A stretch of DNA of 21,312 nt, taken from UHGV virus genome UHGV-1468037, one strand, 5' to 3'. Below, in pieces: positions 1,372 to 21,264 of this stretch. Position 1 is the first letter of the stretch. The number at the start of each line of letters is the position of its first letter. Origin of the DNA: a virus. A model generated the notes under the pieces. The model saw nothing but the letters and a program-made list of their open reading frames with translations, made no database searches and was not told where the DNA came from. Both the position numbers and the translations under genes were made by a program.

Positions 1372-1854
1372 CTATCTGGTCAGGGTGTCGTATTGTTTTT
1401 CGCAGACTCTTCCGGCTTCGGCTGCCCGGTCAGCATACTCTGCCAGTTGTCTGTTTCTCTCGAGAGATTTGCTGAGCACGTCGGCAAGCAAAACTCCGGT
1501 GTCTGCGGCTGACGTCCCAGCGCCGACAATGGCGTTATACTGCCTGAGCTGCTCACGGATGGCAAAGAGTTGTTGCTGCAACCGGCCAGCGCGAGCGGCA
1601 GCATCAAGAGAATCATTGCGCGCCTGGTCGATCCTCTGCTGCGCTTCACGTTCATTGATCGATTTCTCCTGTTCGTAGTGCTGACGAACTATCTCATCTT
1701 CAGCTTTGCGGTCTTCCTTCGCCTGCGCATACCCGGCATCGTACTGACGACTGCCGTGTGCATTCCAGGCTACAACTCCTGATATGACCAGAACAGCAAG
1801 CATCGCCATGATAACCAACTGTTTCCAGTATGCTTTTGCGAATGCCCAGATCAT
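1372..1854 (-). CDS. Rz-like inner-membrane spanin (i-spanin)
   Basis: 160 aa. N-terminal TM helix followed by a long charged coiled-coil region. Start overlaps the endolysin stop (ATGA). Contains a second embedded lipoprotein ORF in another frame. Confidence 0.8.
1380..1655 (-). CDS. Rz1-like outer-membrane lipoprotein spanin (o-spanin), embedded in Rz
   Basis: ORF fully inside Rz in a different frame. Lipobox LAGC after a basic/hydrophobic signal. Pro/Ser-rich mature part. True start may be the internal Met at 1616. Confidence 0.65.
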   Translation of the reverse strand: MNVKRSRGSTRRAMILLMLPLALAGCSNNSLPSVSSSGSITPLSALGRQPQTPEFCLPTCSANLSRETDNWQSMLTGQPKPEESAKNNTTP

Positions 1855-2480
1855 ACCGCCAGCACCTTACTGGCAGTGATGTATCGCGCGCGCCGGTCAT
1901 CAATGCCGTTCCGGCCACCATTGATAAGCAGAGTTACACGTGCAATATCTCCGGTATACTTCATGCAACCTTTGCTGGAGAAGAACCACGCCGCGCTACG
2001 AGCCGCGTATTCGTCCTGCGCCAACAGTTCAGGATTCTCCAGCAGGTCAACTTTCAGACCGTTTCCACAGTCACGATAGTTATTCAAACCGGTAATCTGG
2101 ATAAGCCCGCGCCCACGGTAATTCCAGCCATCACCAGGGGCATTGTTCCCCATGCGTTTGCTGTACACCAGATTTGCGATCGCGCGCTGGCGCTCGAGTG
2201 GCAATGGTGGTTCACCAGCACGGCGACCAAGTGCATTAGCCTGCCCCTGAGTGAGACGCCCAGCCCGAACGAAGTTAGCCAATCCGGTTACGCTGTAGTT
2301 GAAATTTTCCTGCAACCGGGTGAAGCCTCCAGACTCATGCCCGACCTGAGCAATAAACATTGCCTGATCTTCTGGTTTGCTGATACCAAACTCTTTCATC
2401 GCAGAAGTTATATGCGAGAACCAGCGAGCGGCCAGTTCCTCGCTGATACCAGCAGCTCGCTGGAATTGTTTAATCTCCAT
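1851..2480 (-). CDS. Endolysin, glycoside hydrolase family 19 (chitinase class I-like)
   Basis: 209 aa. Motifs typical of GH19 phage endolysins ([36 protein letters not shown]). Flanked by membrane-protein genes and Rz/Rz1. Confidence 0.8.
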
Positions 2481-2778
2481 GTTTAGACCTCGTTATTTTG
2501 AAAATCTGAACTACGTTACCGCGCGTTTTAATGACTGCAGCAAGCATGACAGCGTTGATAATGACCTCAGATAAATCCACAACCATTGGCGTGCGTAACC
2601 AGATTGCATAAGCGACACGAACTGGAATGCTGGCCGCAGCAACAATCAGGAAATAAGCAAGCCACCCACCCCATCGCCTGTGTTGAGAACCGTTTCTCCG
2701 AAATGTGGCAACTCGAACTGCTATACCGGCGCAAATAACCGCATTGGTGATAAGCAAAAAAAGCTCATGAGTTACCAT
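2470..2778 (-). CDS. Small membrane protein of lysis cassette (holin or antiholin candidate)
   Basis: 102 aa with 2-3 hydrophobic helices. Overlaps the endolysin start and the upstream membrane-protein gene. Confidence 0.55.
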
Positions 2779-3178
2779 CGTCTTTTCTCCCCGGAATTAA
2801 CTCGCGTGGATTATCGGAACGGTGATAGAGCCAGATCCCAATTCGCACAGCGACGATTGCTGACACAAATGCACCGGCAGAGAAAACAATCCCTTTCTCG
2901 AAAGAATCCTGTGTGATTGTAGGGATCAGGCTGGCTATGCCGATAAGAATTGATGCTGCTGGTTTGTAGAATAGAAGTCCGCAGAGAAAGCTAAGCATCG
3001 ACAAGAGCACGCGACGACGAATGGGATACTCTACCGCAGAGGTAACAAAAATCACCGCCCCAGCCAAAGACCCCAAAGCAACCTCAGGAGGAACTCCTGC
3101 TATCACTGCCGCCAAAGAACTCATGCTAAGCCACTGATTTAAAGTTTCACTGGTTAGTTGAGCTGACATGTTTTCCAC
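2765..3178 (-). CDS. Multi-TM membrane protein of lysis cassette (holin candidate)
   Basis: 137 aa with about 4 predicted TM segments. First gene of the lysis cluster, downstream of an AT-rich intergenic region. Confidence 0.55.
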   Translation of the reverse strand: MENMSAQLTSETLNQWLSMSSLAAVIAGVPPEVALGSLAGAVIFVTSAVEYPIRRRVLLSMLSFLCGLLFYKPAASILIGIASLIPTITQDSFEKGIVFSAGAFVSAIVAVRIGIWLYHRSDNPRELIPGRKDDGNS

Positions 3179-3535
3179 CGTTTATATGCATAACTACCTC
3201 CTGAACAGTAAAGCATTACGCATGATAAACCATTTATGGTTTTTTGTTACCCAATATTACCAATCCAATTCGCGATGGTCAAAACATATCCACAGCGGTA
3301 AGTTTGAGTGTTTTCATTTCCAAAACTTTATACAATAATATATGCAGTCTGTTATTTTTACGCACAATAAAAACACGATACCAGCTATTTCGCCATAAAT
3401 ACAATTTCCTTTAATGCTGCCAACAGTGCCTGCAAAACATATAACAGAACACATAAATAACAGGCATAATATAGATTTAATAATCTAAGTGCATATAAAT
3501 ATCATTTAAGAAGTTAAGAGCATTATTATAATAAC

Positions 3536-3565
3536 AATAACCCCGCTGTTTTATTCGGGGTTATT
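3536..3565. terminator. Bidirectional terminator hairpin downstream of the tail fiber gene
   Basis: 10-bp stem AATAACCCCG / CGGGGTTATT with a 10-nt loop, flanked by T-rich sequence on both strands; 10 bp past the tail fiber stop. Confidence 0.6.
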
Positions 3566-3575
3566 GCATTTATTA

Positions 3576-6551
3576 TTACATTGACATTAATATAAACATG
3601 GCTAATTCGTCATAACGAATTCCGTAGCGTCCTCCTGCTTTTTTTACAAGAATCATATCTCCTGTTTTATATTGAGAATAAATTTTCTCACCTGTATCAG
3701 GATCTGTGCTCTCTTCAGTTATCACCTCTTCATCCCATACGTCAGGCCATTCATCGTAACACCAAAAAGCATATTGCTCAGGGTTTAAACCATGCTTTCT
3801 AAGAATATCCCCTACGGTTTGAGCGCCAACGCCAAAATGATACCTGGACGACTCAATTCCTTTGTGATTAATTGAGTCATTAAATTTAAATTTATAGATG
3901 ACTGACTTTATTTCAATAGCGGCATTACGCTCTGCATTAAGAATATCATATCTTGTTTTAAGAGTTTCATCTGACGTATTGATTGACCCGGTTCCTGCAT
4001 AGATAACAGAGCATCTGTTTGATGGCTGTCCAATAGCTTTAACATTATCATCAACAGGAGCTATTTTATTAGCATCTGCCAACCACCAGTCTGTTCCATC
4101 AGCGTGACCGATTCTTACTCTTATCCCACTTCTAATATTTAAACTTCCAGTATTGCTCTGTAAATTACAATCTCCTGACGTTGGTCCAAGCAGTACAGTT
4201 TTACCAACACCACATACTACTCTGGCATTTCCTTTTTGTGATACGAGTCTTGACTCACCTCCTGACTGCTCAGGAAGAGATTTATGGTCTATAAATGCAT
4301 CGCGGGGGTTAAATACACCGTCTCCAGAATTATATCTTCCTCCTGTATAGTTGTTAAATACAGGACCCCAGTCAACGCCATTGCCTTCAGAGCACCCGAC
4401 CATTCTAAGCACTCGAGTATTCCCTGCTGCATATGGTAATGAGCTTGTTGATTGCCGGGAAGCTATCATACGTGCTCCATAACCAATAGCATTACCACCA
4501 TTTATAGTTACATATGCTTGCTGGCTTTCGAAATATGTACTGTAAAAGTTCATATTTCCACAGTCATGCAGATGAATAAGAACATCATCCCATCCCTGAA
4601 TGGTTCCCGCATGTACCTGTACACCGCGAACTGGTTCCCCTGAAACCTCCATACACTCTGATGGCCGGCTGAATGGCTGAGACAGGTATTGCGATGTGGC
4701 AAGCAGATGTGTGTGGTGATACAGGCTGGTAATGTAGCAATCGAAAAATTGCGTTCCCGCCATACCAAAGTTATCTATGTCATTTCGCCGTATAGTAGAA
4801 CCTACTGTTGCCTCAGAAGCGTTAGACACTCCAGTAAATACTAACTTATCACCGGATACGGATAATCCTGAATAAGTGAAATTCCTGCCTCCAGATCTTA
4901 AAACCCCGGACGTTTCGAAGGTGTGGCTTGCTGACCATGGGATTTCGATAGTGCTGGACGTTACCGCTGTAATTCGGAATACATCATGGGCGCGGATCGA
5001 AATACCCTTGAATCCCTGGAATCTACAGTGATAATAGTTTTCATCCTCGCCCTGAGCGGCCAGCGTGCCAGATACAGGAATGTTCGTTTTTAAAAGTGCC
5101 GTCTTGCGCCAGTATCCAACCACCTGCAAATTGCGGTATTCATTGCCAAAAGACGCACGTGACCAAATACCTACATCCCACTCATCGCCAAGACCGGTAT
5201 TTGCAATGTCTTTATAACCATCCAGCCCATTGAAATATGGAACAACACGAAAGTTCTCAAGGCGAACACATCCTGTCTCAGGCATCAATATTGCGGCAGA
5301 GAATGGTTTAAGCGTGGCTCTTGTAGTCCCATTAGCATCACCGTTAGTAAAATCCAATAAATCATATGATGACGCAGGTGCCGTTGTTGTATACGGGTCT
5401 TCGGAAGATGGATTAGAAACCACACCACCACTAACATCCATATTAGAAACACAATCTACAGTATATTTTTTATTTCCTACCCCGTACATCAGGAATGTGG
5501 TCCCTGTGGTAATATCAGGAGCAAATGTTGCAGTATATCCAGAGACCCATTTGCCCACACCAAGACCAATTATCCCACCACCAGAAACAGGTGTTAACGT
5601 ATCCGTTATTACATACGCATTATCAGTACCATAAATAACCTTTCCTGTGTTAATGGCAGCTTGCCACGCGGCCCAGTCTATTGACTGAGATAATGAGTCA
5701 ACAAAAGGATATAAGGATTTTGCTTCAGAAATTGAAGAAAACCTCTCAGATAATGGATGATATTTCCCATCCCCAATTGCTCCGAATTGTTTTACATTTA
5801 AGAAAAGAGCATTGTTTTCATGCTGAGTTATAGTTACAGCCCAGGCAAATGGCTGCCTTACACCAATTAATGCATCACCTTTTCCTTCTCCTGCGCTAGA
5901 TAATTGCAGAAGAACATCTGCGGCACTGCCAGAAGGCACAGGTACACCTATAGGTTTACCATTGACGATACCAATGACAGTTTCTTCCAGTAAATGAACT
6001 GGAGGAAGTGGTTCAATAAAATTATCTGGAACCCGTAATGTCCTGTTAATATTCACATTAACAATATTATCAACATAATTCTTTGTAGCTGCATCTTGAG
6101 GCTTGGAAGGATCGCGCAAATTGCGGATGTAATTATTCAAAGCATCGTAATAGTTTGCCACAAATGATGGTTTGCGCAGCGCCAGGCTAAACCAACTGCG
6201 GACTTGCTGTATCAGCATCGTCAGCTTATCTAACGCGTCTTCATGCACCTCAGCGAAAAACTTTCCCTGATTTCGCAGATCAGTTTCCTGCGTAACCGGT
6301 AGCTCTCGTGATATAGAAATCTGATAACCGTTAGCTAACGCCTTCGACAGAATTACATTACCGCCATTATATCCACCAGCCCCAGTGACAGTGTAATCAG
6401 TATCAAGAGCCAGCACAGCGATATTTTCGTCAAGGTCAACCACCTGTACTGCCAGATCAGATTCCTTGAAAACCCTAAAGGTATACGGAAATGATGTCGT
6501 AACGCCGTTACCTGTGTATTCGTTGTGGTCAACTTCGGTTGAGACCGTCAT
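3576..6551 (-). CDS. Tail fiber/tailspike with conserved N-terminal virion-attachment domain, central probable glycanase region, and C-terminal intramolecular chaperone (peptidase S74-like) domain
   Basis: 991 aa. N-terminus (TGNGVTTSFPYTFRVFKESDLAVQV...EVHEDALDKLT) resembles the conserved N-terminal domain of podovirus tail fibers/tailspikes. C-terminus (IYKFKFND...HFGVGAQTVGDIL...GGRYGIRYDEL) resembles the self-cleaving chaperone domain. GGAG RBS 8 nt upstream of the start. Confidence 0.75.
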   Translation of the reverse strand: MTVSTEVDHNEYTGNGVTTSFPYTFRVFKESDLAVQVVDLDENIAVLALDTDYTVTGAGGYNGGNVILSKALANGYQISISRELPVTQETDLRNQGKFFAEVHEDALDKLTMLIQQVRSWFSLALRKPSFVANYYDALNNYIRNLRDPSKPQDAATKNYVDNIVNVNINRTLRVPDNFIEPLPPVHLLEETVIGIVNGKPIGVPVPSGSAADVLLQLSSAGEGKGDALIGVRQPFAWAVTITQHENNALFLNVKQFGAIGDGKYHPLSERFSSISEAKSLYPFVDSLSQSIDWAAWQAAINTGKVIYGTDNAYVITDTLTPVSGGGIIGLGVGKWVSGYTATFAPDITTGTTFLMYGVGNKKYTVDCVSNMDVSGGVVSNPSSEDPYTTTAPASSYDLLDFTNGDANGTTRATLKPFSAAILMPETGCVRLENFRVVPYFNGLDGYKDIANTGLGDEWDVGIWSRASFGNEYRNLQVVGYWRKTALLKTNIPVSGTLAAQGEDENYYHCRFQGFKGISIRAHDVFRITAVTSSTIEIPWSASHTFETSGVLRSGGRNFTYSGLSVSGDKLVFTGVSNASEATVGSTIRRNDIDNFGMAGTQFFDCYITSLYHHTHLLATSQYLSQPFSRPSECMEVSGEPVRGVQVHAGTIQGWDDVLIHLHDCGNMNFYSTYFESQQAYVTINGGNAIGYGARMIASRQSTSSLPYAAGNTRVLRMVGCSEGNGVDWGPVFNNYTGGRYNSGDGVFNPRDAFIDHKSLPEQSGGESRLVSQKGNARVVCGVGKTVLLGPTSGDCNLQSNTGSLNIRSGIRVRIGHADGTDWWLADANKIAPVDDNVKAIGQPSNRCSVIYAGTGSINTSDETLKTRYDILNAERNAAIEIKSVIYKFKFNDSINHKGIESSRYHFGVGAQTVGDILRKHGLNPEQYAFWCYDEWPDVWDEEVITEESTDPDTGEKIYSQYKTGDMILVKKAGGRYGIRYDELAMFILMSM

Positions 6552-6654
6552 GTTAAATCTCCAGATAGTCGCAGCACCCGTTGCGCCGCATATCCGGTTA
6601 TTCTATTACCTGAAAAACCACATATGGATAGAAATACTGTGAATATGAATAGAT

Positions 6655-6671
6655 ATTACCTTTCGGGTAAT
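6655..6671. promoter_or_regulatory. Dyad motif copy 1 (ATTACC TTTCG GGTAAT)
   Basis: Perfect inverted half-sites TTACC/GGTAA with 5-bp spacer; one of four copies in the island; 76 bp upstream of the 85 aa gene. Confidence 0.5.
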
Positions 6672-6707
6672 TTGCAAAACGTGCTGGATAGCAAACAAAT
6701 TATTTGC

Positions 6708-6727
6708 TACTGTATAAATATACAGTT
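6708..6727. promoter_or_regulatory. LexA box (SOS operator)
   Basis: TACTGTATAAATATACAGTT: perfect CTGT-N8-ACAG with an AT-only spacer; about 20 bp upstream of the 85 aa gene start codon (6747). Confidence 0.75.
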
Positions 6728-6746
6728 ATTGCATGGAGAAGATAAG

Positions 6747-7004
6747 ATGCAGCAGTATCACTATCCACTGGAAGACGGATTTACCGAAAGGATTCACACG
6801 CCGGGAGGCGTCAGGTCACTGGTGGAGGGATCGCACTTGATGAAATTACTCCGGGATCTCGATAAGGATGGATTTAATGTCGATGGCCCACTTGCCGAAC
6901 TGACTGCACTGATTAACTACGTCACCAGCTCACAGATGTCTATGCGGGATCTGCAAACACATCTCGACTATTGTGCCGAACAATTACGAAAACAAACCCG
7001 GTAA
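6747..7004 (+). CDS. Small antirepressor-like protein; standalone paralog of the C-terminal domain of the downstream Ant-like protein
   Basis: 85 aa from ATG 6747 (GGAGA RBS). The upstream part of ORF 6624..7004 is rejected because it contains the LexA box and dyad site. Aligns by eye with the Ant-like C-terminus (LM.LL..L..DG..V.G..AELT ... RD.QTH..Y). Confidence 0.65.
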   Translation: MQQYHYPLEDGFTERIHTPGGVRSLVEGSHLMKLLRDLDKDGFNVDGPLAELTALINYVTSSQMSMRDLQTHLDYCAEQLRKQTR

Positions 7005-7010
7005 ATTTAA

Positions 7011-7028
7011 AGGCCGCAAGAGCGGCCT
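7011..7028. terminator. Bidirectional terminator between convergent genes
   Basis: Stem AGGCCGC / GCGGCCT with loop AAGA, T-rich on the plus side and A-rich before. Overlaps the stop codon of the minus-strand 242 aa gene. Confidence 0.55.
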
Positions 7029-7755
7029 ATCGTTTCGCTTTGTGCTCATCCCAGCACGTTTTGCACCATGCCATTAAGCCGTCCGCATTTTGATTATTAG
7101 GGTAAAAGCTGGTTCGTTTTCTGCGGACATTACAAATTGGGCACCACTTCATATGGCGTGTATTCTTTGGGCCATCGAGACACCTTGCACACCATTTAGT
7201 CAATCCATCTGGATTTTTTGACGATTTCCTGAATTTTTCATATGGAAGGTTTATTCTGCATCGCAAGCACTGCTTGCTACCACTTGAAACTCTGTTAGCT
7301 GATTCTTCTTTTGGCAGCGATACAGAAGGTATTCTTGCTGGCTCTGATATTGCCTGAGGTGCTTTTTTAGATGACTGAGACGATATGTCATCACCAGGGA
7401 ATCTTCCATGATATGCCGGACGCGTTGACACTCCAGGTGGAATCTCAGCTGTAAACGGCTTTGGCTGAATCAGTTGCCTCTCTTTTGCTAACTCCTGCTG
7501 TTTATAATATGTCTGGATTACCGCACTATCATAAGCAGGAGGTGCGGAAATATTAGGCGCATTACCTCCAGTTTTTTGAAACTGAGTAGAGGTGTGTTCT
7601 ATCACCTGTGTACGATTAATCGTTATCTCCCCATCTTCGGTCTTTATCGTTTTGTTATGATTAACGACCGTACGATCAGAGATCTTAGTCTTGTTCTGGT
7701 TGATAACGTAAATAATCACCGCAACCACACCAACAACTATCCAGAAAACTTCCAT
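7027..7755 (-). CDS. Membrane-anchored protein with two C-terminal zinc-ribbon (CxxC-N19/20-WCxxC) motifs; function unknown
   Basis: 242 aa. N-terminal TM helix (VFWIVVGVVAVIIYVI) followed by basic residues. Low-complexity linker. Two repeats: CLRC...WCARC and CPIC...WCKTC, in a basic context. GAGGA RBS. Divergent from the ant-like gene. Confidence 0.7.
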   Translation of the reverse strand: MEVFWIVVGVVAVIIYVINQNKTKISDRTVVNHNKTIKTEDGEITINRTQVIEHTSTQFQKTGGNAPNISAPPAYDSAVIQTYYKQQELAKERQLIQPKPFTAEIPPGVSTRPAYHGRFPGDDISSQSSKKAPQAISEPARIPSVSLPKEESANRVSSGSKQCLRCRINLPYEKFRKSSKNPDGLTKWCARCLDGPKNTRHMKWCPICNVRRKRTSFYPNNQNADGLMAWCKTCWDEHKAKR

Positions 7756-7774
7756 TGCTTTTCCTCACAATAAC

Positions 7775-7791
7775 ATTACCTTAAAGGTAAT
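7775..7791. promoter_or_regulatory. Dyad motif copy 2 (ATTACC TTAAA GGTAAT)
   Basis: Perfect 17-bp palindrome in the 5' UTR of the 242 aa gene, about 20 nt from its start codon, and at the far end of the ant-like leader. Confidence 0.5.
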
Positions 7792-7867
7792 ATCTTGCTT
7801 TCAGGTGATCAAGCGTTAAACGCAATCAACCAAATACGGTTGATTTTAATGTTTCTTCGCGCTTATC

Positions 7868-7884
7868 ATTACCTTTACGGTAAA
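7868..7884. promoter_or_regulatory. Dyad motif copy 3 (ATTACC TTTAC GGTAAA)
   Basis: Same TTACC-N5-GGTAA architecture, in the divergent intergenic region between the 242 aa gene and the ant-like gene. Confidence 0.45.
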
Positions 7885-7918
7885 TTTACATTGCACTCCT
7901 CTTGTGCCATAGTAATCG

Positions 7919-8049
7919 GGCACTGGCAAAATCCAGTGCCGGGATTGGCGTCCCGGATTACTACAGAGGCACATATGCCGCATAAGCGGTTTTTTTATGT
8001 GTAAAGCGCACCTATTCTATGGTGGGCTGTGTGGGGGCACCGAAAGGTG
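7919..8049 (+). promoter_or_regulatory. Structured leader upstream of ant-like gene (multiple hairpins including a terminator-like hairpin plus T7 run)
   Basis: Hairpins GGCACTGG/CCAGTGCC (7919-7940) and CCGGGA/TCCCGG (7939-7956) overlap and are mutually exclusive. CCGC-ATAA-GCGG followed by TTTTTTT (7978-7996). GCACC-GAAA-GGTGC (8037-8049). Confidence 0.4.
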
Positions 8050-8149
8050 CGCCGGGTCCTTTGTAGCCGGTTACGCCAACCCTGCACAGTTCACCACCAA
8101 CCGATTGGCGTCGGTAGTGGTGATTAACCTAACTACAAAGGTGATCACT

Positions 8150-8836
8150 ATGACTGCTAACGTAACCCCATCTGTTTTTCATTTTGAATCAGAAGCAACC
8201 ATTCGAGCCATTGTTATTGATGGAAATCCTTGGTTTGTTGCCAAAGACGTTATTAAAGCTCTTCAACTGACAAACCCCACTATGTCAATAAAATCTCTTG
8301 ATGATGATGAAAGGGCTAAATTTAACTTAGGCCGTCAAGGCGAAACCAATATTATCAACGAGTCAGGCCTCTACACACTGATCCTCCGCTGCCGCGACGC
8401 AGTGACACCAGGCACTATCCCCTACCGCTTTCGCAAATGGGTTACAGGTGAGGTTCTTCCTCAGATCCGCCGCACCGGAAGCTACATTAAAAACTCGCTC
8501 CCGCAGGAAGAGCGCATAAAGATGGTTGCCGACCAGGTAGCCAACGCCACGGCGTCAGCAGTAATGCAGGCGATGAAGATAGAGAACAAAACCTACAGTG
8601 CCCCACTGAAGCCAGGCTACCGCAGTCTGATTCATTCGCCGTCGGGTGTTCTCGGCCTGACGGAGAACTCATTGCTGATGAATCTGCTGAATCAGTTGCA
8701 GGACGACGGGCATGATGTATCGGGCGCGGCGGCGGAACTGACCACCATGTTCTGCTACATCGTCGGTGTGAGCAAATGCCTGCGTGATATCCAGACGCAC
8801 GCGGAGTACATCAACGACAAGGCAGGGTTCTTCTGA
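8150..8836 (+). CDS. Antirepressor-like protein with N-terminal BRO-N domain and C-terminal antirepressor-type domain
   Basis: 228 aa from ATG 8150 (AAGG 8 nt upstream). N-terminus matches the BRO-N pattern (IDGNPWFVAKDV...INESGLYTLIL...FRKWVTGEVLPQIRRTGSY). The longer ORF from 7997 would include the hairpin leader and lacks an RBS. Confidence 0.75.
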   Translation: MTANVTPSVFHFESEATIRAIVIDGNPWFVAKDVIKALQLTNPTMSIKSLDDDERAKFNLGRQGETNIINESGLYTLILRCRDAVTPGTIPYRFRKWVTGEVLPQIRRTGSYIKNSLPQEERIKMVADQVANATASAVMQAMKIENKTYSAPLKPGYRSLIHSPSGVLGLTENSLLMNLLNQLQDDGHDVSGAAAELTTMFCYIVGVSKCLRDIQTHAEYINDKAGFF

Positions 8837-8845
8837 CAGAACGGC

Positions 8846-8868
8846 GGCACAGGGATGTGCCTTTAAAT
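8846..8868 (+). terminator. Weak terminator-like hairpin after ant-like gene
   Basis: GGCACA-GGGA-TGTGCC followed by TTTAAATAATT. The T-run is short, so termination is probably partial. Confidence 0.3.
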
Positions 8869-8908
8869 AATTCTGTACAGATTGCAGACTGTGGGTGAAT
8901 AGCGTACT

Positions 8909-13899: not shown

Positions 13900-16646
13900 T
13901 ATTTGCCCCCTGCGTATATATTGCTCGGAAGGTAATTGGCTGAACCATAACCGAATGGTTTGGTCAGATCTGGAGGAGTATATCCATCTTTATTGCTGAA
14001 CTGCGGCAGCGGATTGCCTTCTCTCCGCACTCTAGCCTCATCAACACGCTGTTGCTGGAACTGAATGGTTTGCCTGTACATTGGAGATGTCAGCTGATCC
14101 GGCTTGAAACGAACAGGGAGACCATTTTCTCCAATATAATTTCTCGGTTCTATCGCTCCGTTTGCGTCAGGCTGTAAAACCATAACAGCATAACTCCTAT
14201 CCCTTGCCGTAAGGCCATCAGAAACAAGTATTAAGTCCGTATCACTGCGAGGACCGCCAAAGGATTTTGATTTAAGCTCGCGTTTTTCCTGCTCCCACTG
14301 CCCCTGTATCCAGTTACCAGCACCATTATTTACTCCGTACAATGCCTCAGGTGCATACTTCATAACCTCTGCTTTGCCATTAACTGTAGAAACTCCCCAG
14401 GTGGTTCTGATCATGGCATTGGTCATTTTCTCAGCCTGTTCTGCATCGCCACCTGTCTGTACAAAGTTAGCATCGTAAATTGTCTGGTAATCTCGCTGAT
14501 AGGCCGCATTTGATTTTCCTGGATCGGTAATATCCGGAGACCACGAACCAAAGGAAGTCAGACTGCTGGCGTTATTTTGTGCAGCAGTTGCCCTCGCCGC
14601 GACATATTTTTTGTCTCGCATGGCAGTGGAAAGCATCTGTTTCATTCGGTCATCCTGTTGGAACACCTGGCTGTAAGCCATATCAACAGCCTTATCCTCC
14701 GGCACGCCAGCGCGGGAATAATCGTAAACCTTGCCGTAAAATGCCATCGTACTTTTATCAAGTGTTGCCGCTGCCGCCGGATTATTATCGAATAACTGAC
14801 CGTAGAATTTTGCCATCGGGACAACCAGCGCAGGATCTCTTGATGTTGCTCCACTGTTAAGCATTGTTTTAACCTGAGTTGGTATCATGCCGCTTTTAGT
14901 TGTGACGGTGACCAGTGTATTGATGCTCTGCGGATCAGATATGGAAAACGAAGGCGCGATATCCTGCGCGAAATAACGGTCTACCGCTGCCTGATTGTTT
15001 TTGTCGTTAGGGTCCAGCGGGAAGTTATTTTGCATTGAAGACACGAACCTGTTTCTTCCCTGCTGAATCTCCCACTCCCTATCCATCTCTTTAAATTTGG
15101 CCTGCATTTTCTCCCAGCGTTGCTGGTTAGCTGCAAATCCAAGAGCGTTTGGATCCTGTGGACGTAAACGTTCAAGAATGTCTTGTCGTCCTTCTGGAGT
15201 GAGGTCTTTAGCGGCACCAATGACACCTCCATATTGTATCTGCGCCTGCATATCCTTCCACTTCATAGCGCCAATGCGCGGACCATTGGCCCGGATAAAA
15301 TCGTCCTCAGAAGGTAACTTCTCAGGTTTCAATCCTTCATCAAGGGCTGAATATGCATCTTTAACTACGGTGCTAAGCTGGTCCGCATACTGCTGGCGGT
15401 ACTGATTTCTCAGCTCATTAGCCTGCCTCAATGCCTGTATTTGCATTTGAGGGCTCATAGCGTCAAATGCCGCATTGCCCGTATAACGCTTAGGTGAATC
15501 AAGGTTAGTTAGACCAAGGGCTGCCGAGATACCAGTTTCAAGCTGTTCGGTGCTATAAGGCATACTGCCATTTTCGTGTTTAATAATCCCAGCACATAAA
15601 GCAGCTAGTGTCTTTGGGTTAGAGATATCAAGCTGATCATTCTCCCCAACACCAAGCTCACTACACAATGCCCTAATATAAGCATCAGTATTATTACCAT
15701 CACTAGCCGGAGCATAGCGATTAACAATCTCGCTAACGGTGTCATAGCCTTGACGCTGGTAAGACAACATATTTTTACCCAACGCGCGGATTCCATGCTC
15801 AGGGGTAGCAAACGTTGCAAAACGTCCATCGCTACCGATCTGACCTTCCCACGGGTTAGATTTGCTCGCTTCAATATTGCCAGGGTTATTATTACGTAAA
15901 CCACGAGCATCCAATGAATTACCATGTGATATTGCACGACTCACACCATCAAGATCCCCTGGCTCTCCATTAACCTGAAGAAACTCGTTGTATTTTTGAG
16001 CGATATTTCCTATCCATGCTTGCTGCCCCATTTGTTCCTTGAGCTGAGTTTTCTGCTGAACACGCCACTCATCAGGAAGCCCATGCGCATCAGCGTATTG
16101 ATCAATAGATTCAAATCGCTGCTTGGCTAAATCGACAAATGCTTGGTTATCGCTATATAGCCCCGCAGACTGAGTGACAGCCAATGCATTTCCTGACAAA
16201 TACGTTTGATCTTGGAATTGCTGAAACTGCCCAACTTCATATCGACGTGCCTGATTGTAATAAGACTGCATAGACTGCTGGAGTTGAAAGGATAATTTAT
16301 TCCTTTCCTCACTTTCAGGAATTGAGCCTAATAATGCCTGAGCCCTTTCCTGCATATTTTTCATAACAGCGTCACTCTGACCAAGAGCGTTTTTACCCTG
16401 TTTAGAAATCAGCCCATTTTCAGGGTTGTTAATCTGGTCATCTGCAAATTGGTTAAATTGCAGTAACGCCTCCTGGGCCATAGCAACATTCGCTTTCTGC
16501 CTAGCTTCACCATATGCCACCGCATACTGATCTGCGACATTCGCCAGCACCTGACCTGCTTGAGGAACATCGAAGGTCTGAAAACCACCGGTTTGCACAC
16601 CACGACTTTGCACCTGGCGTCCGGATGTAGTAGGAACAACAGGCAT
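13899..16646 (-). CDS. Large internal virion/ejection protein (T7 gp15-position analog) with an embedded conserved motif block
   Basis: 915 aa. Start/stop overlaps with neighbours. Contains the block ...GLRNNNPGNIEASKSNPWEGQ...GRFATFATPEHGIRALGKNMLSYQRQGYDTVSEIVNRYAP..., which I recall as recurring in phage virion proteins, possibly a wall-acting domain. Confidence 0.6.
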   Translation of the reverse strand: MPVVPTTSGRQVQSRGVQTGGFQTFDVPQAGQVLANVADQYAVAYGEARQKANVAMAQEALLQFNQFADDQINNPENGLISKQGKNALGQSDAVMKNMQERAQALLGSIPESEERNKLSFQLQQSMQSYYNQARRYEVGQFQQFQDQTYLSGNALAVTQSAGLYSDNQAFVDLAKQRFESIDQYADAHGLPDEWRVQQKTQLKEQMGQQAWIGNIAQKYNEFLQVNGEPGDLDGVSRAISHGNSLDARGLRNNNPGNIEASKSNPWEGQIGSDGRFATFATPEHGIRALGKNMLSYQRQGYDTVSEIVNRYAPASDGNNTDAYIRALCSELGVGENDQLDISNPKTLAALCAGIIKHENGSMPYSTEQLETGISAALGLTNLDSPKRYTGNAAFDAMSPQMQIQALRQANELRNQYRQQYADQLSTVVKDAYSALDEGLKPEKLPSEDDFIRANGPRIGAMKWKDMQAQIQYGGVIGAAKDLTPEGRQDILERLRPQDPNALGFAANQQRWEKMQAKFKEMDREWEIQQGRNRFVSSMQNNFPLDPNDKNNQAAVDRYFAQDIAPSFSISDPQSINTLVTVTTKSGMIPTQVKTMLNSGATSRDPALVVPMAKFYGQLFDNNPAAAATLDKSTMAFYGKVYDYSRAGVPEDKAVDMAYSQVFQQDDRMKQMLSTAMRDKKYVAARATAAQNNASSLTSFGSWSPDITDPGKSNAAYQRDYQTIYDANFVQTGGDAEQAEKMTNAMIRTTWGVSTVNGKAEVMKYAPEALYGVNNGAGNWIQGQWEQEKRELKSKSFGGPRSDTDLILVSDGLTARDRSYAVMVLQPDANGAIEPRNYIGENGLPVRFKPDQLTSPMYRQTIQFQQQRVDEARVRREGNPLPQFSNKDGYTPPDLTKPFGYGSANYLPSNIYAGGK

Positions 16647-17224
16647 CAGTAACCTCCTATTTTGAATCTGGAGTCAGAATTCATAAAACCTGAGTTAGAT
16701 AACATTGGCGTCCCACCACTAGATGTACTTCCTTTAGAGAACGGACTCCACGTCCCACCAAACATCTGGTACGCACCGTATGCTTTTAGTGGTGCCGTTA
16801 ACAAAGTGCTGGTCATCGATGATTTAGCAGCCGACTGAGCAGCAGCCCCCTGTGCCTGAGCATTCATTCCCTGAACCTGATACCCATATGCCTCACGCTG
16901 AGCATTATTCACTGTCGTTAACGCATCAAGAGTGCCGAACTGAGCATTATCCGCAAAAACGTCAAGAGCTGTTCCGCTACTTAATTCCGCACCGGTAGCC
17001 CCCATAGTGGCCGCCGCAGTGCCTGAGCGTTGACGCATTTCACGACGACGCTGATCCGCTTCAATATTCCCACGATTGATTGAATCCTGTGCCTGAGCTT
17101 CAGCAATTTCAGCATTCCGATCAGCTACGGCTGACTGGTATTTTGCCTGCTTGCTCTGGCTGTACATTGACGCTGCTGTGGATGCCACTGTGACGGCAAC
17201 CAAAGCGATGGCTGGGTTACACAT
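16646..17224 (-). CDS. Internal virion protein B-like (T7 gp14-like)
   Basis: 192 aa. N-terminus MCNPAIALVAVTVASTAAS... then Ala/Gln-rich helical region, similar in pattern to T7 gp14 as I remember it (MCWAAAIPIAISGAQ...). Size and position match. Confidence 0.6.
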   Translation of the reverse strand: MCNPAIALVAVTVASTAASMYSQSKQAKYQSAVADRNAEIAEAQAQDSINRGNIEADQRRREMRQRSGTAAATMGATGAELSSGTALDVFADNAQFGTLDALTTVNNAQREAYGYQVQGMNAQAQGAAAQSAAKSSMTSTLLTAPLKAYGAYQMFGGTWSPFSKGSTSSGGTPMLSNSGFMNSDSRFKIGGY

Positions 17225-17688
17225 TATTTTCTCTCCATGTGAAATCTGTGGAAATTAAGACCAAGAGCACCATAAGGCGCGGCTTCTTCAAGCCTGAATC
17301 CAAGCCAGTGCAGCCATGCTTTGGCAACATGGTTTCGCTCGTCGACGTAGTTTTCCAGGCGCGGATAAACTGCCAGCATCTGCTGCAATACAGGTCGGCA
17401 GTGGCGAAGAAATGTCTTCTGATATTTTTCAATACGGCTGGTTCCGACCAGCCAGGGTGTACCATTGCCACCGATCATTGACGCCGGAGATACACCAAAC
17501 ATGGTTACCAGTTCTCCGTTCGCGAACCCTGACCAGGCCATAGTCGCAGTGCGAAGACCAACACGCAGCGCATCTTCGGTAGTCATCAGCGATACCGCAT
17601 ACAGTTCGTCAATATCAGCCTGACGAACATCCGGCAAAATCATCTGAAGATGCTCTTCGGTGGCGGGAATAATTCGAACATCGATCAT
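17224..17688 (-). CDS. Small virion protein (T7 gp13-position analog)
   Basis: 154 aa. Overlapping stop/start with flanking genes. Assigned by position and size only. Confidence 0.5.
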   Translation of the reverse strand: MIDVRIIPATEEHLQMILPDVRQADIDELYAVSLMTTEDALRVGLRTATMAWSGFANGELVTMFGVSPASMIGGNGTPWLVGTSRIEKYQKTFLRHCRPVLQQMLAVYPRLENYVDERNHVAKAWLHWLGFRLEEAAPYGALGLNFHRFHMERK

Positions 17689-20153
17689 CAGAATCCCCCA
17701 ACAGTAAGACGAGGAATAACGGCAAGAACAGACAGCGGCAACGGGTCAAGCTGACGGATTCTTACACGTCCGTTTTTGCCCCAGTTACTGTCCAGTTTCA
17801 CTTCTACTTTTCCGGTAGCGTCATCAACAGGATCATCGTAGAACTCGAATTCACGCTGTGGATATTCGTACCATTTACCGCCGGGCGTAGTCGCCCAGAT
17901 GCCACGACTGGCATTCACAACCAGAGTAACGGACGGGATCACCTGTTTTTTGTCCAGCAGCGTTTCCTGTCCGTTAATGTTGATATCCAGTGTTTCGAAT
18001 TCAGCAGTTATTGGCAGGCCGATGTGCACTACAGCCCCAGGTGATTCCAGCGTGACGGCACCTCCGGAAACCACTTTCTGTGGTTCCACGTTCGCATCAG
18101 AGAGAATGTTTACGGTCTGGCCTTCAAGATGAGACAGGCCTCCAAATGTCCGGCGCGCCATCTGCCAGTTCGTGGTGGCCACATTCCTGAGGGATGGCGG
18201 GACGTTCCTGTTAGCACGAACCACTACAGCGGTATTGCTGGTTACAGAAATAATGTCGCAACGTAATTCTTTTGACACTTCAGTATCAGGATCAGTTCCG
18301 GTATAAGGGAACTGTAGTTGCGCGCCGACATCACTACTGGTGAAGTACGCACCACCAGAAACACTGATTGTATATTCCGCACGGTAATCCCATTCACCAG
18401 AACCACCAGTGATGGTCATCGTTCTGTCAGACGTATTTCTTCCATCATAGCTAAGGCCAGAATCAACAAAGAAAGCATCTTCATCGCTGGTAAATAAACG
18501 GCTGGACAGTCGCTCTATGTATCTCACTGTTTGCCCGTTAACGGTTCGGTTAACGACGAAATACACCGCATCTTCATTGCCTTCGCTGATACTGCATGTG
18601 CTTTCATATTTTCCGGTACTGGATTGTGGTGCCCATGCAAAAACCTGCTGATCACGCAAATAGGTCATCACCAGTAATTTACCGTCATCACGAATGCAGA
18701 AGGCGCTGGAGTAAGGGACAATCGAGAAGCACCAGTCAACAATGCTGTGCTTCTGAAAAAGATGATTGGCAAGGATGGTCAGGTCGTTCCCCTGATAGCC
18801 GTCAACATCGAATGAGTAGGCCAGATCACGGACAACACTGCCTTTCTCCTGGACGAACAGAGCAATATTCGCCACGGCAATTGGTGGGACATTGCTCGAG
18901 CCATTTGATCCCTGAGAGCTGAATGCAAATGATGATGGGGTAAGCACTTTGTTCTGGTCGCCAGTGATGACGTACTCACCTCCGGAAGTCAGCGCCACCA
19001 GCGAACCAACATCAATCAGGTGACGGATCTCATTAACCTGACGCCCGGCATAGGTGTAGATAATTCTGTCGTCATCCTGCGTAGGATTGCTTTTGCCAAA
19101 ATCCTTATAATCCCCGGTACGGCTGGCCCAGATAGTCTGAGGGAACGCAGTCGATGCGGCGAAGTAAAGGCGTTGTTGATAATAAACAACAGTGCCAGGA
19201 TAACCGTTAATACTGTTCCAGGCATATTTAGCCCATTTATAGCTGGCATTATCCTCGCCAACTACCTGCGAAGGGATATAGGAAATCACCTCGGCAGTTG
19301 CAGTAGTTCCATTTGCAGCAGAGATACGGGCAATGCCAAAACCACTGTGCAGATACTCCCACTCAATGCCGGTATCATCATCACCGGATCCGCCCCAGCC
19401 ATCCCATGATGTGCCTTCTGTATGCGAAGGGCGCAAAGTGCCTGTTTTGCCTGCTGTAACGGCGCGATAGTAGTTACTGTCTGCACGGCGAATATCGCCA
19501 ATCGACGTACTCTTACTGGTTTCCCATACCGGCACAGAATCCACTGCAGGCTGTTCCAGATAGAACAATTTGCCTACCTGCTCCGCGCCAAAAATTGAGG
19601 CGCTTGCCGTTAACGTAATTGTCCCGGTGCTGGCGCTGGCATAAACCGTCACTGACTCGTCAATATTGATATCTTCAAATGGCCCGTTCTTCGTTACCAC
19701 ATCAACCAGTTGCCAGTTGTCATGCGCATAGCGGCGCAACTCTTTCGGCGGGTATGCCGGATGAACCAGCGTAAGCACGTCTGCGCTTTGCGTGAATTTA
19801 ATTCGGAACAGATCGGCTTCAGTATATGGCGTGGCAATTTCATAAATAACATTGCTGCTGTTCAGCACCAACGCACCATCTTTGATAACGCGCATGTACT
19901 GGTGTCCGAACTCCAGAGCATAAGTCTGAACCGTCGAGAACTGGAACGGGATCAGGCGGCATTTCCGATTTGGGTATTTGGCGGCACCGACAAAACGCGT
20001 ACCAGGTCGATTCTCAACGCCGCCATACTGCCGCACGATAAAGTTATCGCACTTGCGCAATGCCACCTGGTACTTCGCCATGTCGATACGACCGTACAAC
20101 GACGGTCCAATCTCACCACCGGCAAAGCTGGGCTGGATCCAACTGATAGCCAT
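17688..20153 (-). CDS. Tail tubular protein B-like (nozzle; T7 gp12-position analog)
   Basis: 821 aa. Directly follows the tail-tube A-like gene with an ATGA overlap. Size close to T7 gp12. Confidence 0.6.
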   Translation of the reverse strand: MAISWIQPSFAGGEIGPSLYGRIDMAKYQVALRKCDNFIVRQYGGVENRPGTRFVGAAKYPNRKCRLIPFQFSTVQTYALEFGHQYMRVIKDGALVLNSSNVIYEIATPYTEADLFRIKFTQSADVLTLVHPAYPPKELRRYAHDNWQLVDVVTKNGPFEDINIDESVTVYASASTGTITLTASASIFGAEQVGKLFYLEQPAVDSVPVWETSKSTSIGDIRRADSNYYRAVTAGKTGTLRPSHTEGTSWDGWGGSGDDDTGIEWEYLHSGFGIARISAANGTTATAEVISYIPSQVVGEDNASYKWAKYAWNSINGYPGTVVYYQQRLYFAASTAFPQTIWASRTGDYKDFGKSNPTQDDDRIIYTYAGRQVNEIRHLIDVGSLVALTSGGEYVITGDQNKVLTPSSFAFSSQGSNGSSNVPPIAVANIALFVQEKGSVVRDLAYSFDVDGYQGNDLTILANHLFQKHSIVDWCFSIVPYSSAFCIRDDGKLLVMTYLRDQQVFAWAPQSSTGKYESTCSISEGNEDAVYFVVNRTVNGQTVRYIERLSSRLFTSDEDAFFVDSGLSYDGRNTSDRTMTITGGSGEWDYRAEYTISVSGGAYFTSSDVGAQLQFPYTGTDPDTEVSKELRCDIISVTSNTAVVVRANRNVPPSLRNVATTNWQMARRTFGGLSHLEGQTVNILSDANVEPQKVVSGGAVTLESPGAVVHIGLPITAEFETLDININGQETLLDKKQVIPSVTLVVNASRGIWATTPGGKWYEYPQREFEFYDDPVDDATGKVEVKLDSNWGKNGRVRIRQLDPLPLSVLAVIPRLTVGGF

Positions 20154-20761
20154 CAGGACAACCTCGCAATGGTAAACTCGTCAACCGGTGGCTGTGGTTC
20201 CTGTGATTCATTCTGGCTATGCGAGCCAGCACTAAGAATCACGCGATTGTACATATTGAGGGCAAACGTACCGAGGTCTGCATTCCCAGTGAGCGCCATG
20301 TTAATAGCTGCCGCAAGACGCCAGGCCAACGCCTCCATAAAAATGGCATCAAACATGTTCACATCTGAAACGCGAGAGACATACTTGAGCCATGCCTGCG
20401 GCTGGTCTGTGTAGATCAACTTTCCTGTTCCGTTGGTGTCTGCACCAACTTCGTACTGAACGCGCATTGCTGCTGTTGGATTGCGTACACCAGGAAGCAT
20501 AATTTCAGTAATGCGCAGACAATCGGACGGGTACTGGTACGCATATTCCCAGTCAGGCGGTGGATTGCTCGTATCTGCAAGCGCCACGCGTTTGGTAGCA
20601 AAGTTCCAGTCAAAATCAGAAAGAACAGCATCACGGCAGGCCTCAAAGTGCAGCGAACATTCCCCCGCTTCCTTGCTGGCTTCCGTCAGGCTGTTAATAC
20701 TGCGGCTGTTGCCAATATTGGACAGCGCACGATTACAGATCTCTACTACAGAGGCCATCAC
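20153..20761 (-). CDS. Tail tubular protein A-like (gatekeeper/adaptor; T7 gp11-like)
   Basis: 202 aa. N-terminal region (ICNRALSNIGNSRSINSLTEAS...) has a pattern reminiscent of T7 gp11. Size and position match. Confidence 0.55.
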   Translation of the reverse strand: MMASVVEICNRALSNIGNSRSINSLTEASKEAGECSLHFEACRDAVLSDFDWNFATKRVALADTSNPPPDWEYAYQYPSDCLRITEIMLPGVRNPTAAMRVQYEVGADTNGTGKLIYTDQPQAWLKYVSRVSDVNMFDAIFMEALAWRLAAAINMALTGNADLGTFALNMYNRVILSAGSHSQNESQEPQPPVDEFTIARLS

Positions 20762-21081
20762 TCACCTCCGTTACCGTACAGAGTTTCAGCCGCTGATTTT
20801 TCTACATCCCTGGAAACAGGAGCGATCGCCATATCAGTGATCTGCAGATCGGCGCTGCGATTAACACCATCGTCAGTTTCTCTGGCAGACAGGCCTCGAA
20901 TAACAGCCTTTGCAGTTATCATCACTTCTGTTCCGACGCCCTGAGGTTGCGCCTTCAGCTTATTCAATGTGTCGTTATTAAGAGTGATGCACAGCTCCCA
21001 CGGGTATTCATCGCGAGTTCTGGTTTCTCCGCTCTCATCCTGGTAGCTGTCAGTGCCGGTTTTGAGGTTTACGAGTTCCAT
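20758..21081 (-). CDS. Small virion-module protein, unknown function
   Basis: ORF 20758..21087. I prefer ATG 21081-21079 (protein MELVNLKTG...) with AGGAG RBS 5 nt upstream over the GTG at 21087. Stop overlaps the start of the tail-tube A-like gene. Confidence 0.6.
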   Translation of the reverse strand: MELVNLKTGTDSYQDESGETRTRDEYPWELCITLNNDTLNKLKAQPQGVGTEVMITAKAVIRGLSARETDDGVNRSADLQITDMAIAPVSRDVEKSAAETLYGNGGE

Positions 21082-21092
21082 ATACACTCCTG

Positions 21093-21116
21093 CAATAAAG
21101 GGGCCGAAGCCCCTTG
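21093..21116 (-). terminator. Terminator-like hairpin downstream of truncated gene
   Basis: Stem AAGGGGC / GCCCCTT with loop CGAA; on the minus strand it is followed by CTTTATTG. Confidence 0.45.
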
Positions 21117-21131
21117 TCGGATTCGCGAGGC

Positions 21132-21264
21132 TTACACGCCCAGTTCTTTACGCTTATCTGCGATCTTCTCTCGGAGCGTTTCGGCTTTAGCGTTATGGTG
21201 TGGCTTCTCGTTAAAGAGCAATTCGTACTCTTCACGGAGCTTATCCAGTTCACCATCATCTGAC
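21132..21264 (-). CDS. 5'-truncated CDS (C-terminal 43 codons) cut by the contig/adapter boundary
   Basis: Open frame with no start, translating by hand to ...SDDGELDKLREEYELLFNEKPHHNAKAETLREKIADKRKELGV with TAA stop at 21134-21132. The ORF-track 69 aa ORF 21050..21259 is in a different frame and is rejected. Confidence 0.5.

Follow-up and report, generated by a model that had tools for sequence, protein, structure and literature searches.

Temperate podophages of the epsilon15/phiV10 group share both an insertion site and a late gene order. Escherichia phage phiV10 and Salmonella phage epsilon15 belong to the genus Uetakevirus, to which TL-2011b and EC.W1-9 are unclassified relatives. The phages phiV10, epsilon15 and vB_EcoP_ZX5 carry ATTGAGTGGGAATGATT as their attP/attB core at the 3' end of guaA (PMC9782041), and TL-2011b, a prophage of enterohaemorrhagic Escherichia coli (EHEC) O103:H25, is reported to lie at guaA as well (PMC3293862). 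In addition to this 17-bp core, phiV10 and epsilon15 have a late gene order in common: capsid staple, adaptor, nozzle, internal virion proteins A and B (IVP-A and IVP-B) and large internal proteins, then a small gene on the reverse strand, the tailspike, holins, an endolysin of glycoside hydrolase family 19 (GH19) and Rz/Rz1. Homology between the tail and internal virion proteins of epsilon15 and those of T7 was published in 2016 (Hardies et al., PMC4819975), and prophages of the epsilon15/phiV10 kind have previously been mislabelled as satellites of the phage-inducible chromosomal island (PICI) type (PMC10121019). Here we compare with these systems a 21,312-nt stretch of DNA, UHGV virus genome UHGV-1468037 (hereafter the window, meaning the whole stretch), and the prophage that it contains.

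The window is a draft-assembly contig that leads from yfgH and yfgI of E. coli into the late arm of a temperate podophage. Almost certainly, to judge from its genes and its junction, this is the late arm of an epsilon15/phiV10-like phage at the guaA att site. Such elements form a common, already described group; both the att site (PMC9782041) and the T7-like synteny (PMC4819975) are in print, and the element is not novel. An earlier note, made from the letters of the window without database searches, had described a prophage arm with T7-like virion gene order next to yfgH and yfgI. A PICI-type satellite was also considered and rejected, as the full set of tail genes is present.

The late arm and its relatives

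Both DNA and protein comparisons lead to the epsilon15/phiV10 group. Megablast against phage genomes returned phiV10, TL-2011b, EC.W1-9, HEMP4, phiv142-3 and the O157 typing phages, with Enterobacter phage Tyrion and Klebsiella phages as more distant matches. In complete E. coli genomes, coverage of the window reaches 80% or more in seven chromosomes, with SBF22 as the top match (98.3% identity over 93%). For the adaptor, nozzle and IVP-A proteins, identity is 98.7-99.5% with phiV10 p14-p16 and 62-88% with epsilon15 gp11-gp13; with the shared att core, these identities bear out the epsilon15/PhiV10-like family that the earlier note had put forward as a candidate. BLASTP of virion proteins against epsilon15 also matched gp10 (43%), the N-terminus of gp15 (44%) and the N-terminus of gp20 (70%). 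Pfam and PHROG assignments cover every late gene. The late genes stand in the order of epsilon15 gp10-gp14, gp19, gp20 and gp23-Rz, and the lysis genes fall into the same Pfam and PHROG families as those of epsilon15. The note had named two outcomes that would speak against it, virion proteins of myovirus baseplate or tape-measure type and a flank that is not chromosomal; no virion protein received such an assignment, and the flank is chromosomal. The nozzle gene is widespread, occurring in 535 of 5426 complete E. coli genomes (~10%), and the gene for the 1129-amino-acid (aa) internal protein is found in 120 of the same 5426.

The virion genes form a nearly gap-free minus-strand series of open reading frames (ORFs) from 20761 down to 10510, in which neighbours overlap or abut by 0-4 nt (six-frame ORF list). 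Their order and sizes (202, 821, 154, 192, 915 and 1129 aa, then tail fibre and lysis genes) are those that had been read from the sequence before; that gene list was right in its order and left out a 283-aa gene (9657-10508) and a ~3-kb accessory region (6624-9565). At the right-hand end, the contig cuts the 3' end of the next head gene (21132-21264, minus strand), a homologue of epsilon15 gp9 and phiV10 p12 that aligns to a 336-nt gene of the SBF22 locus (L001 34517-34852). Beside it lies the gene for a 109-aa homologue of epsilon15 gp10 (20758-21087, minus strand; Pfam Gp10-like, E 1e-50), named capsid staple protein in SBF22. The tail adaptor, or tail tubular protein A (20153-20761, minus strand), is called as a 202-aa ORF and is probably 201 aa long, from an ATG at 20758; BLASTP gives 99.5% identity to phiV10 p14 and 85% to epsilon15 gp11. 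The 821-aa tail nozzle, or tail tubular protein B (17688-20153, minus strand), is 98.9% identical to phiV10 p15 and 88% to epsilon15 gp12. It is followed by a 154-aa protein of the T7 gp13/IVP-A family (17224-17688, minus strand; PHROG 308, E 2e-62), 98.7% identical to phiV10 p16 and 62% to epsilon15 gp13, and by a 192-aa internal virion protein of the T7 gp14/IVP-B family (16646-17224, minus strand; Pfam PF24072 T7_gp14, 35.9 bits vs a cut-off of 27; PHROG 418), which is 65% identical to epsilon15 gp14 over aa 1-164 and divergent after that.

Two large internal proteins complete the series. The first, of 915 aa (13899-16646, minus strand; PHROG 1044, 1317 bits), occupies the gp15/IVP-C position. 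It contains a lytic transglycosylase-like domain at about aa 247-399, with PDB matches to 9vvp_L Gp29 (E 4e-35) and the endolysin 7q47 (E 3e-15), and over its N-terminal ~500 aa it shares 44% identity with epsilon15 gp15 and phiV10 p18; the annotation of the epsilon15 gp15 record likewise cites an HHpred match to soluble lytic transglycosylase. The second, the 1129-aa ejection protein of the T7 gp16/IVP-D family (10510-13899, minus strand; PHROG 342, 785 bits), aligns through aa 21-1129 to positions 192-1227 of PHROG 342 and does not have the N-terminal transglycosylase domain (positions 1-191). It is 98% identical to its EC.W1-9 counterpart. Against TL-2011b gp38, BLASTP gives 42% identity over aa 586-1129, which match the C-terminal part of gp38, and 32% over aa 53-586; the same search found no match to epsilon15 gp16/gp17 or phiV10 p19/p20. 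Sequence searches of the PDB with the 1129-aa and 192-aa proteins found nothing. RefSeq names the 1129-aa homologues 'DUF919 family protein' on the basis of a hit of 46 residues and 23 bits to a family from nucleopolyhedroviruses; the segment concerned looks coiled-coil-like.

Among solved structures, those of phage Carin-1 (PDB 8CK1) and Legionella phage LME-1 (PDB 9EFK) come nearest to the tail proteins: the nozzle matches them at E 5e-218 and 2e-15, the adaptor at E 3e-26 and 4e-5, and the N-terminal anchor of the tailspike likewise has its closest solved relatives there. The nozzle aligns over its full length to the Tail Nozzle of Carin-1 (8ck1_A), and the adaptor to the Connector Protein (8ck1_E), which its AlphaFold2 (AF2) model (predicted local distance difference test, pLDDT, 84.5) also matches (E 2e-15). 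Carin-1 and LME-1 have other hosts, and the comparison with them covered the tail proteins.

The internal-protein cassette sets the window apart from phiV10 and epsilon15. Those phages have three large internal proteins (837/600/824 aa in phiV10 and 842/634/918 aa in epsilon15; PHROGs 992, 1145 and 684), whereas the window has two (915 and 1129 aa; PHROGs 1044 and 342) together with a secreted 283-aa protein, and its tailspike has a different receptor-binding domain. By blastn, the block from the adaptor to gp14 (16740-21264) and the lysis cassette are phiV10-like, and phiV10 has no DNA similar to 9589-16450, the segment with the 283-, 1129- and 915-aa genes. That segment is 97% identical to EC.W1-9 and SBF22.

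EC.W1-9, an unclassified sewage isolate, and the prophages of SBF22 and 702-18 are the closest known systems. EC.W1-9 has 97% DNA identity to the window across 9589-20758 and 93% in the lysis cassette, and its 283-, 1129- and 915-aa proteins are 98-100% identical to the window's; it differs in its tailspike ('eliminase', 624 aa) and in other accessory genes. The SBF22 prophage has the same tailspike and insertion site as the window, with 87% identity in the antirepressor region. TL-2011b, whose record includes yfgH and yfgI, shares the region of a 242-aa gene and the antirepressor region with the window (90.6%). Its internal cassette also encodes two proteins, with gp38 in PHROG 342, and is a third variant (905 + 1004 aa), 29% identical to the 915-aa protein and 32-42% to the 1129-aa protein. 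It has no 283-aa gene, a different tailspike and an O-acetyltransferase.

Three alternative cassettes thus stand behind nozzles that are at least 99% identical. Among 80 IMG/VR loci, the phiV10 type occurs in ~38, the window type in 13-15 and the TL-2011b type in 12-13. From the alignments, the cassettes appear to switch within or close to the C-terminal end of the gp14-like protein, a position that would fit gp14, gp15 and gp16 acting as one unit. Swaps of this kind are commonplace phage mosaicism, and public phage records already contain each of the three variants.

Integration at guaA

The left end of the window is host chromosome. Bases 1-1261 are 97.4% identical to K-12 MG1655 and carry yfgH, which encodes a glycine-zipper lipoprotein (80-598, plus strand; Pfam Rick_17kDa_Anti), and yfgI (614-1153, plus strand; Pfam DUF5384, E 4e-62); both genes bear these names in SBF22 and K-12. 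The flank that the earlier note had called host-like is chromosomal, and it is present on the left side only, so that a single junction lies inside the window. At this junction stands the 17-bp att core ATTGAGTGGGAATGATT (1245-1261, minus strand), the single exact match in the window where 0.02 would be expected by chance. Bases 1247-1261 duplicate the final 15 nt of guaA, including its stop codon. Similarity to K-12 stops at 1261 (blastn) and similarity to free phages starts at 1245 (megablast); phage-genome matches begin at 1245 or beyond, except for TL-2011b, whose record includes host flank. The attP of phiV10 holds the same ATTGAGTGGGAATGATT core.

Comparison of K-12 with SBF22 provides the empty and the occupied site. 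In K-12, yfgI and guaA are convergent with 92 bp between them, as the earlier note had said. In SBF22, yfgI is followed by the same prophage and then by integrase, core and guaA, so that ATTGAGTGGGAATGATT stands at both prophage ends and the second core overlaps the guaA stop codon. The SBF22 order from yfgI is lysis, tailspike, internal proteins, tail, head, terminase, replication, repressor and an integrase adjoining guaA. On this sequence evidence the prophage is integrated in the yfgI-guaA interval, where it had been proposed to lie, at the published site of the epsilon15/phiV10 group. Its extent had been put at 1372-21264; the right limit stands as the end of real sequence, and the left boundary moves to the att core at 1245-1261.

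Site-specific recombination at the 17-bp core overlapping the guaA stop codon accounts for the one core copy left beside yfgI. A second copy beside the integrase would keep guaA intact, as SBF22 and the literature suggest. Judging from these relatives, the integrase, the second att copy and guaA should lie outside the window; a P4-type tyrosine integrase and a lambda-like repressor and early region are present in both the SBF22 counterpart and phiV10. A tRNA scan of the window was negative, as expected, because the att site lies in guaA and not in a tRNA gene.

The T7 parallel

The virion genes are collinear with those of T7. From the adaptor to gp16, the T7 proteins measure 196/794/138/196/747/1318 aa and those of the window 202/821/154/192/915/1129 aa. 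Features shared with T7 are the adaptor fold, PHROG 308 (gp13), PHROG 342 (gp16) and Pfam T7_gp14. The adaptor model matches T7 gp11 (7box_M; E 1.3e-5, probability 1.00, TM 0.59-0.61) and KP32 tail tubular protein A (5mu4), with Carin-1, LME-1 and PhiM1 ranking higher, and the epsilon15 RefSeq record cites an HHpred match of gp11 to T7 tail tubular protein A. T7 gp13 also falls in PHROG 308 (E 1e-42), and hhalign of the 154-aa family against T7 gp13 gives a probability of 84% (E 7e-6). T7 gp16 is in PHROG 342 too, with 1355 bits over nearly the whole profile length; hhalign of the 1129-aa family against the T7 gp16 family is weak (E 0.01).

T7 gp11 and gp12 fall in PHROGs 446 and 457, as against 394 and 376 for the window proteins. 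A divergent nozzle profile searched against the PDB reached only another nozzle (23sh_T 'nozzle gp13', E 2.6e-5) and not T7 gp12. The groups of epsilon15 gp12 and T7 gp12, however, have a strong published match between hidden Markov models (E < 1e-10; Hardies et al. 2016, PMC4819975). The gp15 position also falls in different PHROGs, 1044 for the 915-aa protein and 1339 for T7 gp15, and Hardies et al. 2016 could not confirm IVP-C in the epsilon15 group, assigning it by size and synteny (PMC4819975). Our hhalign families, drawn from 80 IMG/VR loci for the window and 19 loci for T7, yielded profiles too shallow to be informative for gp11, gp12, gp14 and gp15, and Pfam, PHROGs and fold comparison were used in their place. 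The parallel is collinear and holds for five of the six genes, that of gp12 by way of the literature; the equivalence of the 915-aa protein to gp15 is one of position and size alone. The run from gp11 to gp17 proposed in the earlier note is accordingly upheld at gp11, gp13, gp14 and gp16, relies on the published epsilon15 match at gp12, and is left without detected homology at gp15.

The window also departs from T7 in several respects. T7 has its transglycosylase domain at the N-terminus of gp16, whereas the window has one in the 915-aa protein at the gp15 position. In place of the gp17 fibre there is a tailspike with an enzymatic-type domain and a chaperone. The element is temperate and integrated, with no RNA polymerase-driven layout, and its endolysin belongs to GH19 and is placed in a late lysis cassette.

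Weighing the assignment

Several observations weigh against an epsilon15/phiV10-like prophage arm with a T7-like virion order. The window has a single junction, and no integrase, repressor, replication, terminase, portal or capsid gene is seen in it; with half of the genome beyond the contig end, completeness and inducibility of the prophage are unproven. DNA similarity of the 20-kb phage part (coverage x identity) is ~38% to phiV10 and ~72% to the unclassified EC.W1-9. On the side of T7, and with shallow local profiles, hhalign of the nozzle against the T7 gp12 family reached E 0.083 and the profile comparison of the adaptor with T7 gp11 failed, while no homology to T7 gp15 was detected for the 915-aa protein (BLASTP E 0.037, hhalign none). 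To place a phage in a genus, the practice of the International Committee on Taxonomy of Viruses (ICTV) asks for nucleotide similarity of at least ~70% to one of its members across the full genome. The records of TL-2011b and EC.W1-9 name no genus. Because DNA similarity to the genus type phiV10 is only ~38%, we file the element as epsilon15/phiV10-like and not as a confirmed Uetakevirus.

It is unlikely that the element is a defective or cryptic remnant and not a complete inducible phage. The contig does end within a head gene, leaving half of the genome unseen, and the SBF22 relative has early-region pseudogenes (a frameshifted DUF1064, truncated ead/Ea22 and DUF551). Within the window, however, 17 of 17 late and lysis ORFs are full length, and proteins are 98-100% identical to those of viable phages (the 283-, 1129- and 915-aa proteins of EC.W1-9 and p14-p16 of phiV10). 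The truncation itself has a technical source. Base 21264 is the last of real sequence, and the end of the window is the end of a contig, not a biological boundary; the last 48 bases (21265-21312), which we take to be Illumina Nextera adapter with index, consist of CTGTCTCTTATACACATCTCCGAGCCCACGAGAC, the 8-base index AGGCAGAA and ATCTCG, an untrimmed adapter read-through that is not biological. All database matches, to phage genomes and to complete E. coli genomes, end at 21264, and SBF22 carries on with phage sequence where the adapter begins. Since adapter sequence marks the contig end, the late arm is truncated at 21264 by the assembly and not by a deletion.

Imperfect read cleaning, evident from the untrimmed adapter at one end of this short-read draft contig, raises the question of an assembly chimera, in which DNA of a free phage was fused to chromosomal reads without true integration at this place. 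We regard this as very improbable: the adapter is at the opposite contig end from the junction, the junction coincides exactly with the published 17-bp att core, and the same junction is found in complete genomes (the seven with at least 80% window coverage).

The least credible reading, to which we give next to no weight, is a true T7-family (Autographiviridae) relative turned temperate and outside the epsilon15 group: it would draw on the gene order collinear with T7 gp11-gp17, on a PHROG shared by the 1129-aa protein and T7 gp16 and not by epsilon15 gp16 and gp17, and on a tailspike receptor-binding domain 73% identical to that of phage YZ1 (a 38.8-kb coliphage, presumably lytic and T7-like to judge from its genome size and not from its record), but identity to phiV10 is 99% in the nozzle, adaptor and gp13-like proteins, T7 gp11 and gp12 are in other PHROGs, the capsid staple, lysis cassette and att site as well as the relatives' integrase, repressor and lambda-P-type replication genes are of epsilon15/phiV10 type, and no complete relative has a phage RNA polymerase gene. 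Autographiviridae are defined by a strictly lytic lifestyle and a single-subunit RNA polymerase encoded by the phage, and this element is integrated at an att site, with an integrase and a repressor in its complete relatives. The epsilon15/phiV10-like prophage at guaA is the reading that we retain.

The secreted 283-aa protein

The last gene of the internal-protein cassette encodes a secreted protein. It spans 9657-10508 on the minus strand, starts 1 nt from the stop of the 1129-aa gene, and is present in 12 of the 13 loci that carry that gene. The 283-aa product, 100% identical to its EC.W1-9 counterpart, has a signal peptide and eight conserved cysteines (alignment), an N-terminal half with a weak likeness to ankyrin and a bundle of helices at the C-terminal end. 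Its structural model has a pLDDT of 76, and a fold search yields weak ankyrin(-repeat) matches alone (E > 0.1). The family is small, with 22 clusters restricted to Enterobacterales. In E. coli and Klebsiella it is co-inherited with the gp16-type cassette; in Morganella prophages, a homologue with 40% identity keeps its place after the gp16-like gene (8001-8813 in loci L108-L110), and further homologues occur in Serratia and Providencia.

Co-inheritance, the signal peptide and the conserved cysteines are the whole basis of a doubtful reading in which the 283-aa protein may be more than a passenger and might act with the ejectosome in the periplasm, for instance as a superinfection-exclusion factor specific to its cassette or as a factor required for the channel. 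If this were true, the protein would either obstruct the trans-periplasmic channel made by incoming phages of its own type or be needed for that channel. We know of no periplasmic ejectosome-partner protein described for the epsilon15/phiV10 group.

Accessory, tailspike and lysis genes

The accessory region (6624-9565), mostly on the plus strand, separates the internal-protein genes from the tail fibre gene. It opens with a small conserved gene of 85 aa (6747-7004, plus strand; PHROG 450, E 9e-48, aa 42-126), a homologue of epsilon15 gp19 and phiV10 p24. The open frame extends back to 6624; relatives begin at the Met at 6747, and a 258-nt gene is annotated at the matching place in SBF22, phiV10, TL-2011b and EC.W1-9. 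A 242-aa gene follows on the minus strand (7027-7755; PHROG 6762 of unknown function, E 6e-149), whose product has a membrane helix at its N-terminus and, at its C-terminus, two CxxC zinc-ribbon motifs, with weak endonuclease VII and Lar-like zinc-ribbon matches in the PHROG search. The region of this gene is missing from SBF22 (7005-7860) and phiV10 and present in TL-2011b, where the record leaves it as an unannotated misc_feature; the DNA is found in 155 of 5426 E. coli genomes.

Two small RNAs precede an antirepressor gene. An isrK-family RNA (7920-7996, plus strand; Rfam RF01394, 76.8 bits vs a gathering score of 50) and a C4-family antisense RNA of the P1/P7 immI type (8015-8101, plus strand; Rfam RF01695, 79.5 bits vs a gathering score of 45) are both full length. 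The BRO-N antirepressor Ant lies at 8150-8836 on the plus strand (Pfam Bro-N, E 8e-20; PHROG 130, anti-repressor Ant, E 8e-57). Because the 279-aa ORF called from 7997 overlaps the isrK and C4 RNAs, we consider its start to have been called too far upstream; translation probably begins at the Met at 8150 (228 aa), with a Shine-Dalgarno-like AAAGGTGA upstream. The isrK-C4-antirepressor arrangement resembles the RNA-antirepressor layout of P1 immI, and the tandem of the two RNAs looks like an RNA-controlled antirepressor module of the P1 immI or Gifsy-1 type. By analogy with these two loci, the antirepressor would probably govern escape from lysogeny. At the Gifsy-1 isrK locus, which the arrangement also resembles, IsrK is reported to act as a small RNA and as an mRNA as well (PMC4825925).

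The accessory region ends with a 146-aa gene (9125-9565, plus strand; PHROG 5954 of unknown function, E 2e-73), after which the terminator scan placed a bidirectional terminator-like hairpin (9564-9580). In TL-2011b this slot holds a YafO-family toxin gene. The 146-aa protein had no match in PADLOC, Pfam or NCBIfam and the 242-aa protein none in PADLOC or NCBIfam; with no match for the accessory genes in the PADLOC and NCBIfam scans, a recognisable defence island at 6624-9565 was dropped as a candidate. The same two scans returned no match for the virion proteins.

The tailspike (3576-6551, minus strand; 991 aa) is built of a conserved N-terminal anchor, a variable receptor-binding part and a C-terminal intramolecular chaperone. 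The anchor (from ~aa 1-230 to 1-280) is 64-70% identical to epsilon15 gp20, phiV10 p25 and TL-2011b gp48, and BLASTP similarity to these three is limited to the N-terminal part; in the PDB it matches the N-terminus of the Carin-1/Dpo tailspike (E 3e-25). The receptor-binding part shows 99% identity to prophage YDC107_2, next to the 73% to phage YZ1. Residues 820-988, within a domain of ~aa 820-990, match endosialidase-type chaperones in the PDB, and Pfam Peptidase_S74 scores 22.0 bits, exactly at its cut-off of 22. Tailspike mosaicism is usual in these genera (PMC10408124).

Between the tailspike and the holin genes lies a 397-bp AT-rich non-coding gap (3179-3575; GC content ~37%). At this position phiV10 (oac), TL-2011b (O-acetyltransferase) and epsilon15 (gp21/22) carry an O-antigen-modifying gene, whereas 3179-3575 of the window holds none, and the prophage seems to be without a seroconversion gene between holin and tailspike.

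The lysis cassette occupies the minus strand next to the att core. It comprises a second holin-like membrane protein (2765-3178; Pfam Phage_holin_8, E 1.5e-11; PHROG 198), a 102-aa holin (2470-2778; Pfam Phage_holin_3_7, E 6e-27; PHROG 217), a 209-aa GH19 endolysin (1851-2480; Pfam Glyco_hydro_19; PHROG 181, E 3e-91) and a 160-aa Rz-like spanin (1372-1854; Pfam DUF2514, E 2e-42; PHROG 312, E 1e-58), in which the Rz1 lipoprotein spanin is embedded (1380-1655; PHROG 11621, E 1e-39). The same nested Rz/Rz1 pair is found in phiV10. The second holin is a homologue of epsilon15 gp23 and phiV10 p27, with an ORF of 137 aa here and 134 aa in the annotation of relatives.

Discussion

The roles of the late genes can be proposed by homology to T7 and epsilon15. 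The adaptor and nozzle would build the short tail on the portal, and the gp13-like 154-aa protein would help to assemble the internal core. The 192-, 915- and 1129-aa proteins would be carried inside the head and expelled at infection to make a channel through the envelope; peptidoglycan would be cut by the transglycosylase domain of the 915-aa protein. At the end of the cycle, lysis would be brought about by two holins, the GH19 endolysin and the Rz/Rz1 spanin pair. In annotation, the label 'DUF919 family protein' is misleading for an ejection protein of the T7 gp16 family (PHROG 342).

Host recognition would depend on the tailspike. Six trimeric tailspikes are expected to dock through the conserved N-terminal anchor, and the swappable receptor-binding domain, folding with the help of the C-terminal self-cleaving chaperone, would recognise and probably cleave a surface polysaccharide. 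The tailspike probably reports or targets the surface polysaccharide type of the host, as it is used in the Uetakevirus literature (PMC10408124).

We can confidently assign the window to an epsilon15/phiV10-like prophage at the guaA att site; its importance lies mainly in annotation. Its biology is mildly interesting in one respect: a three-way swap of the ejection cassette behind a nearly identical nozzle, with a conserved secreted protein tied to one of the cassettes.

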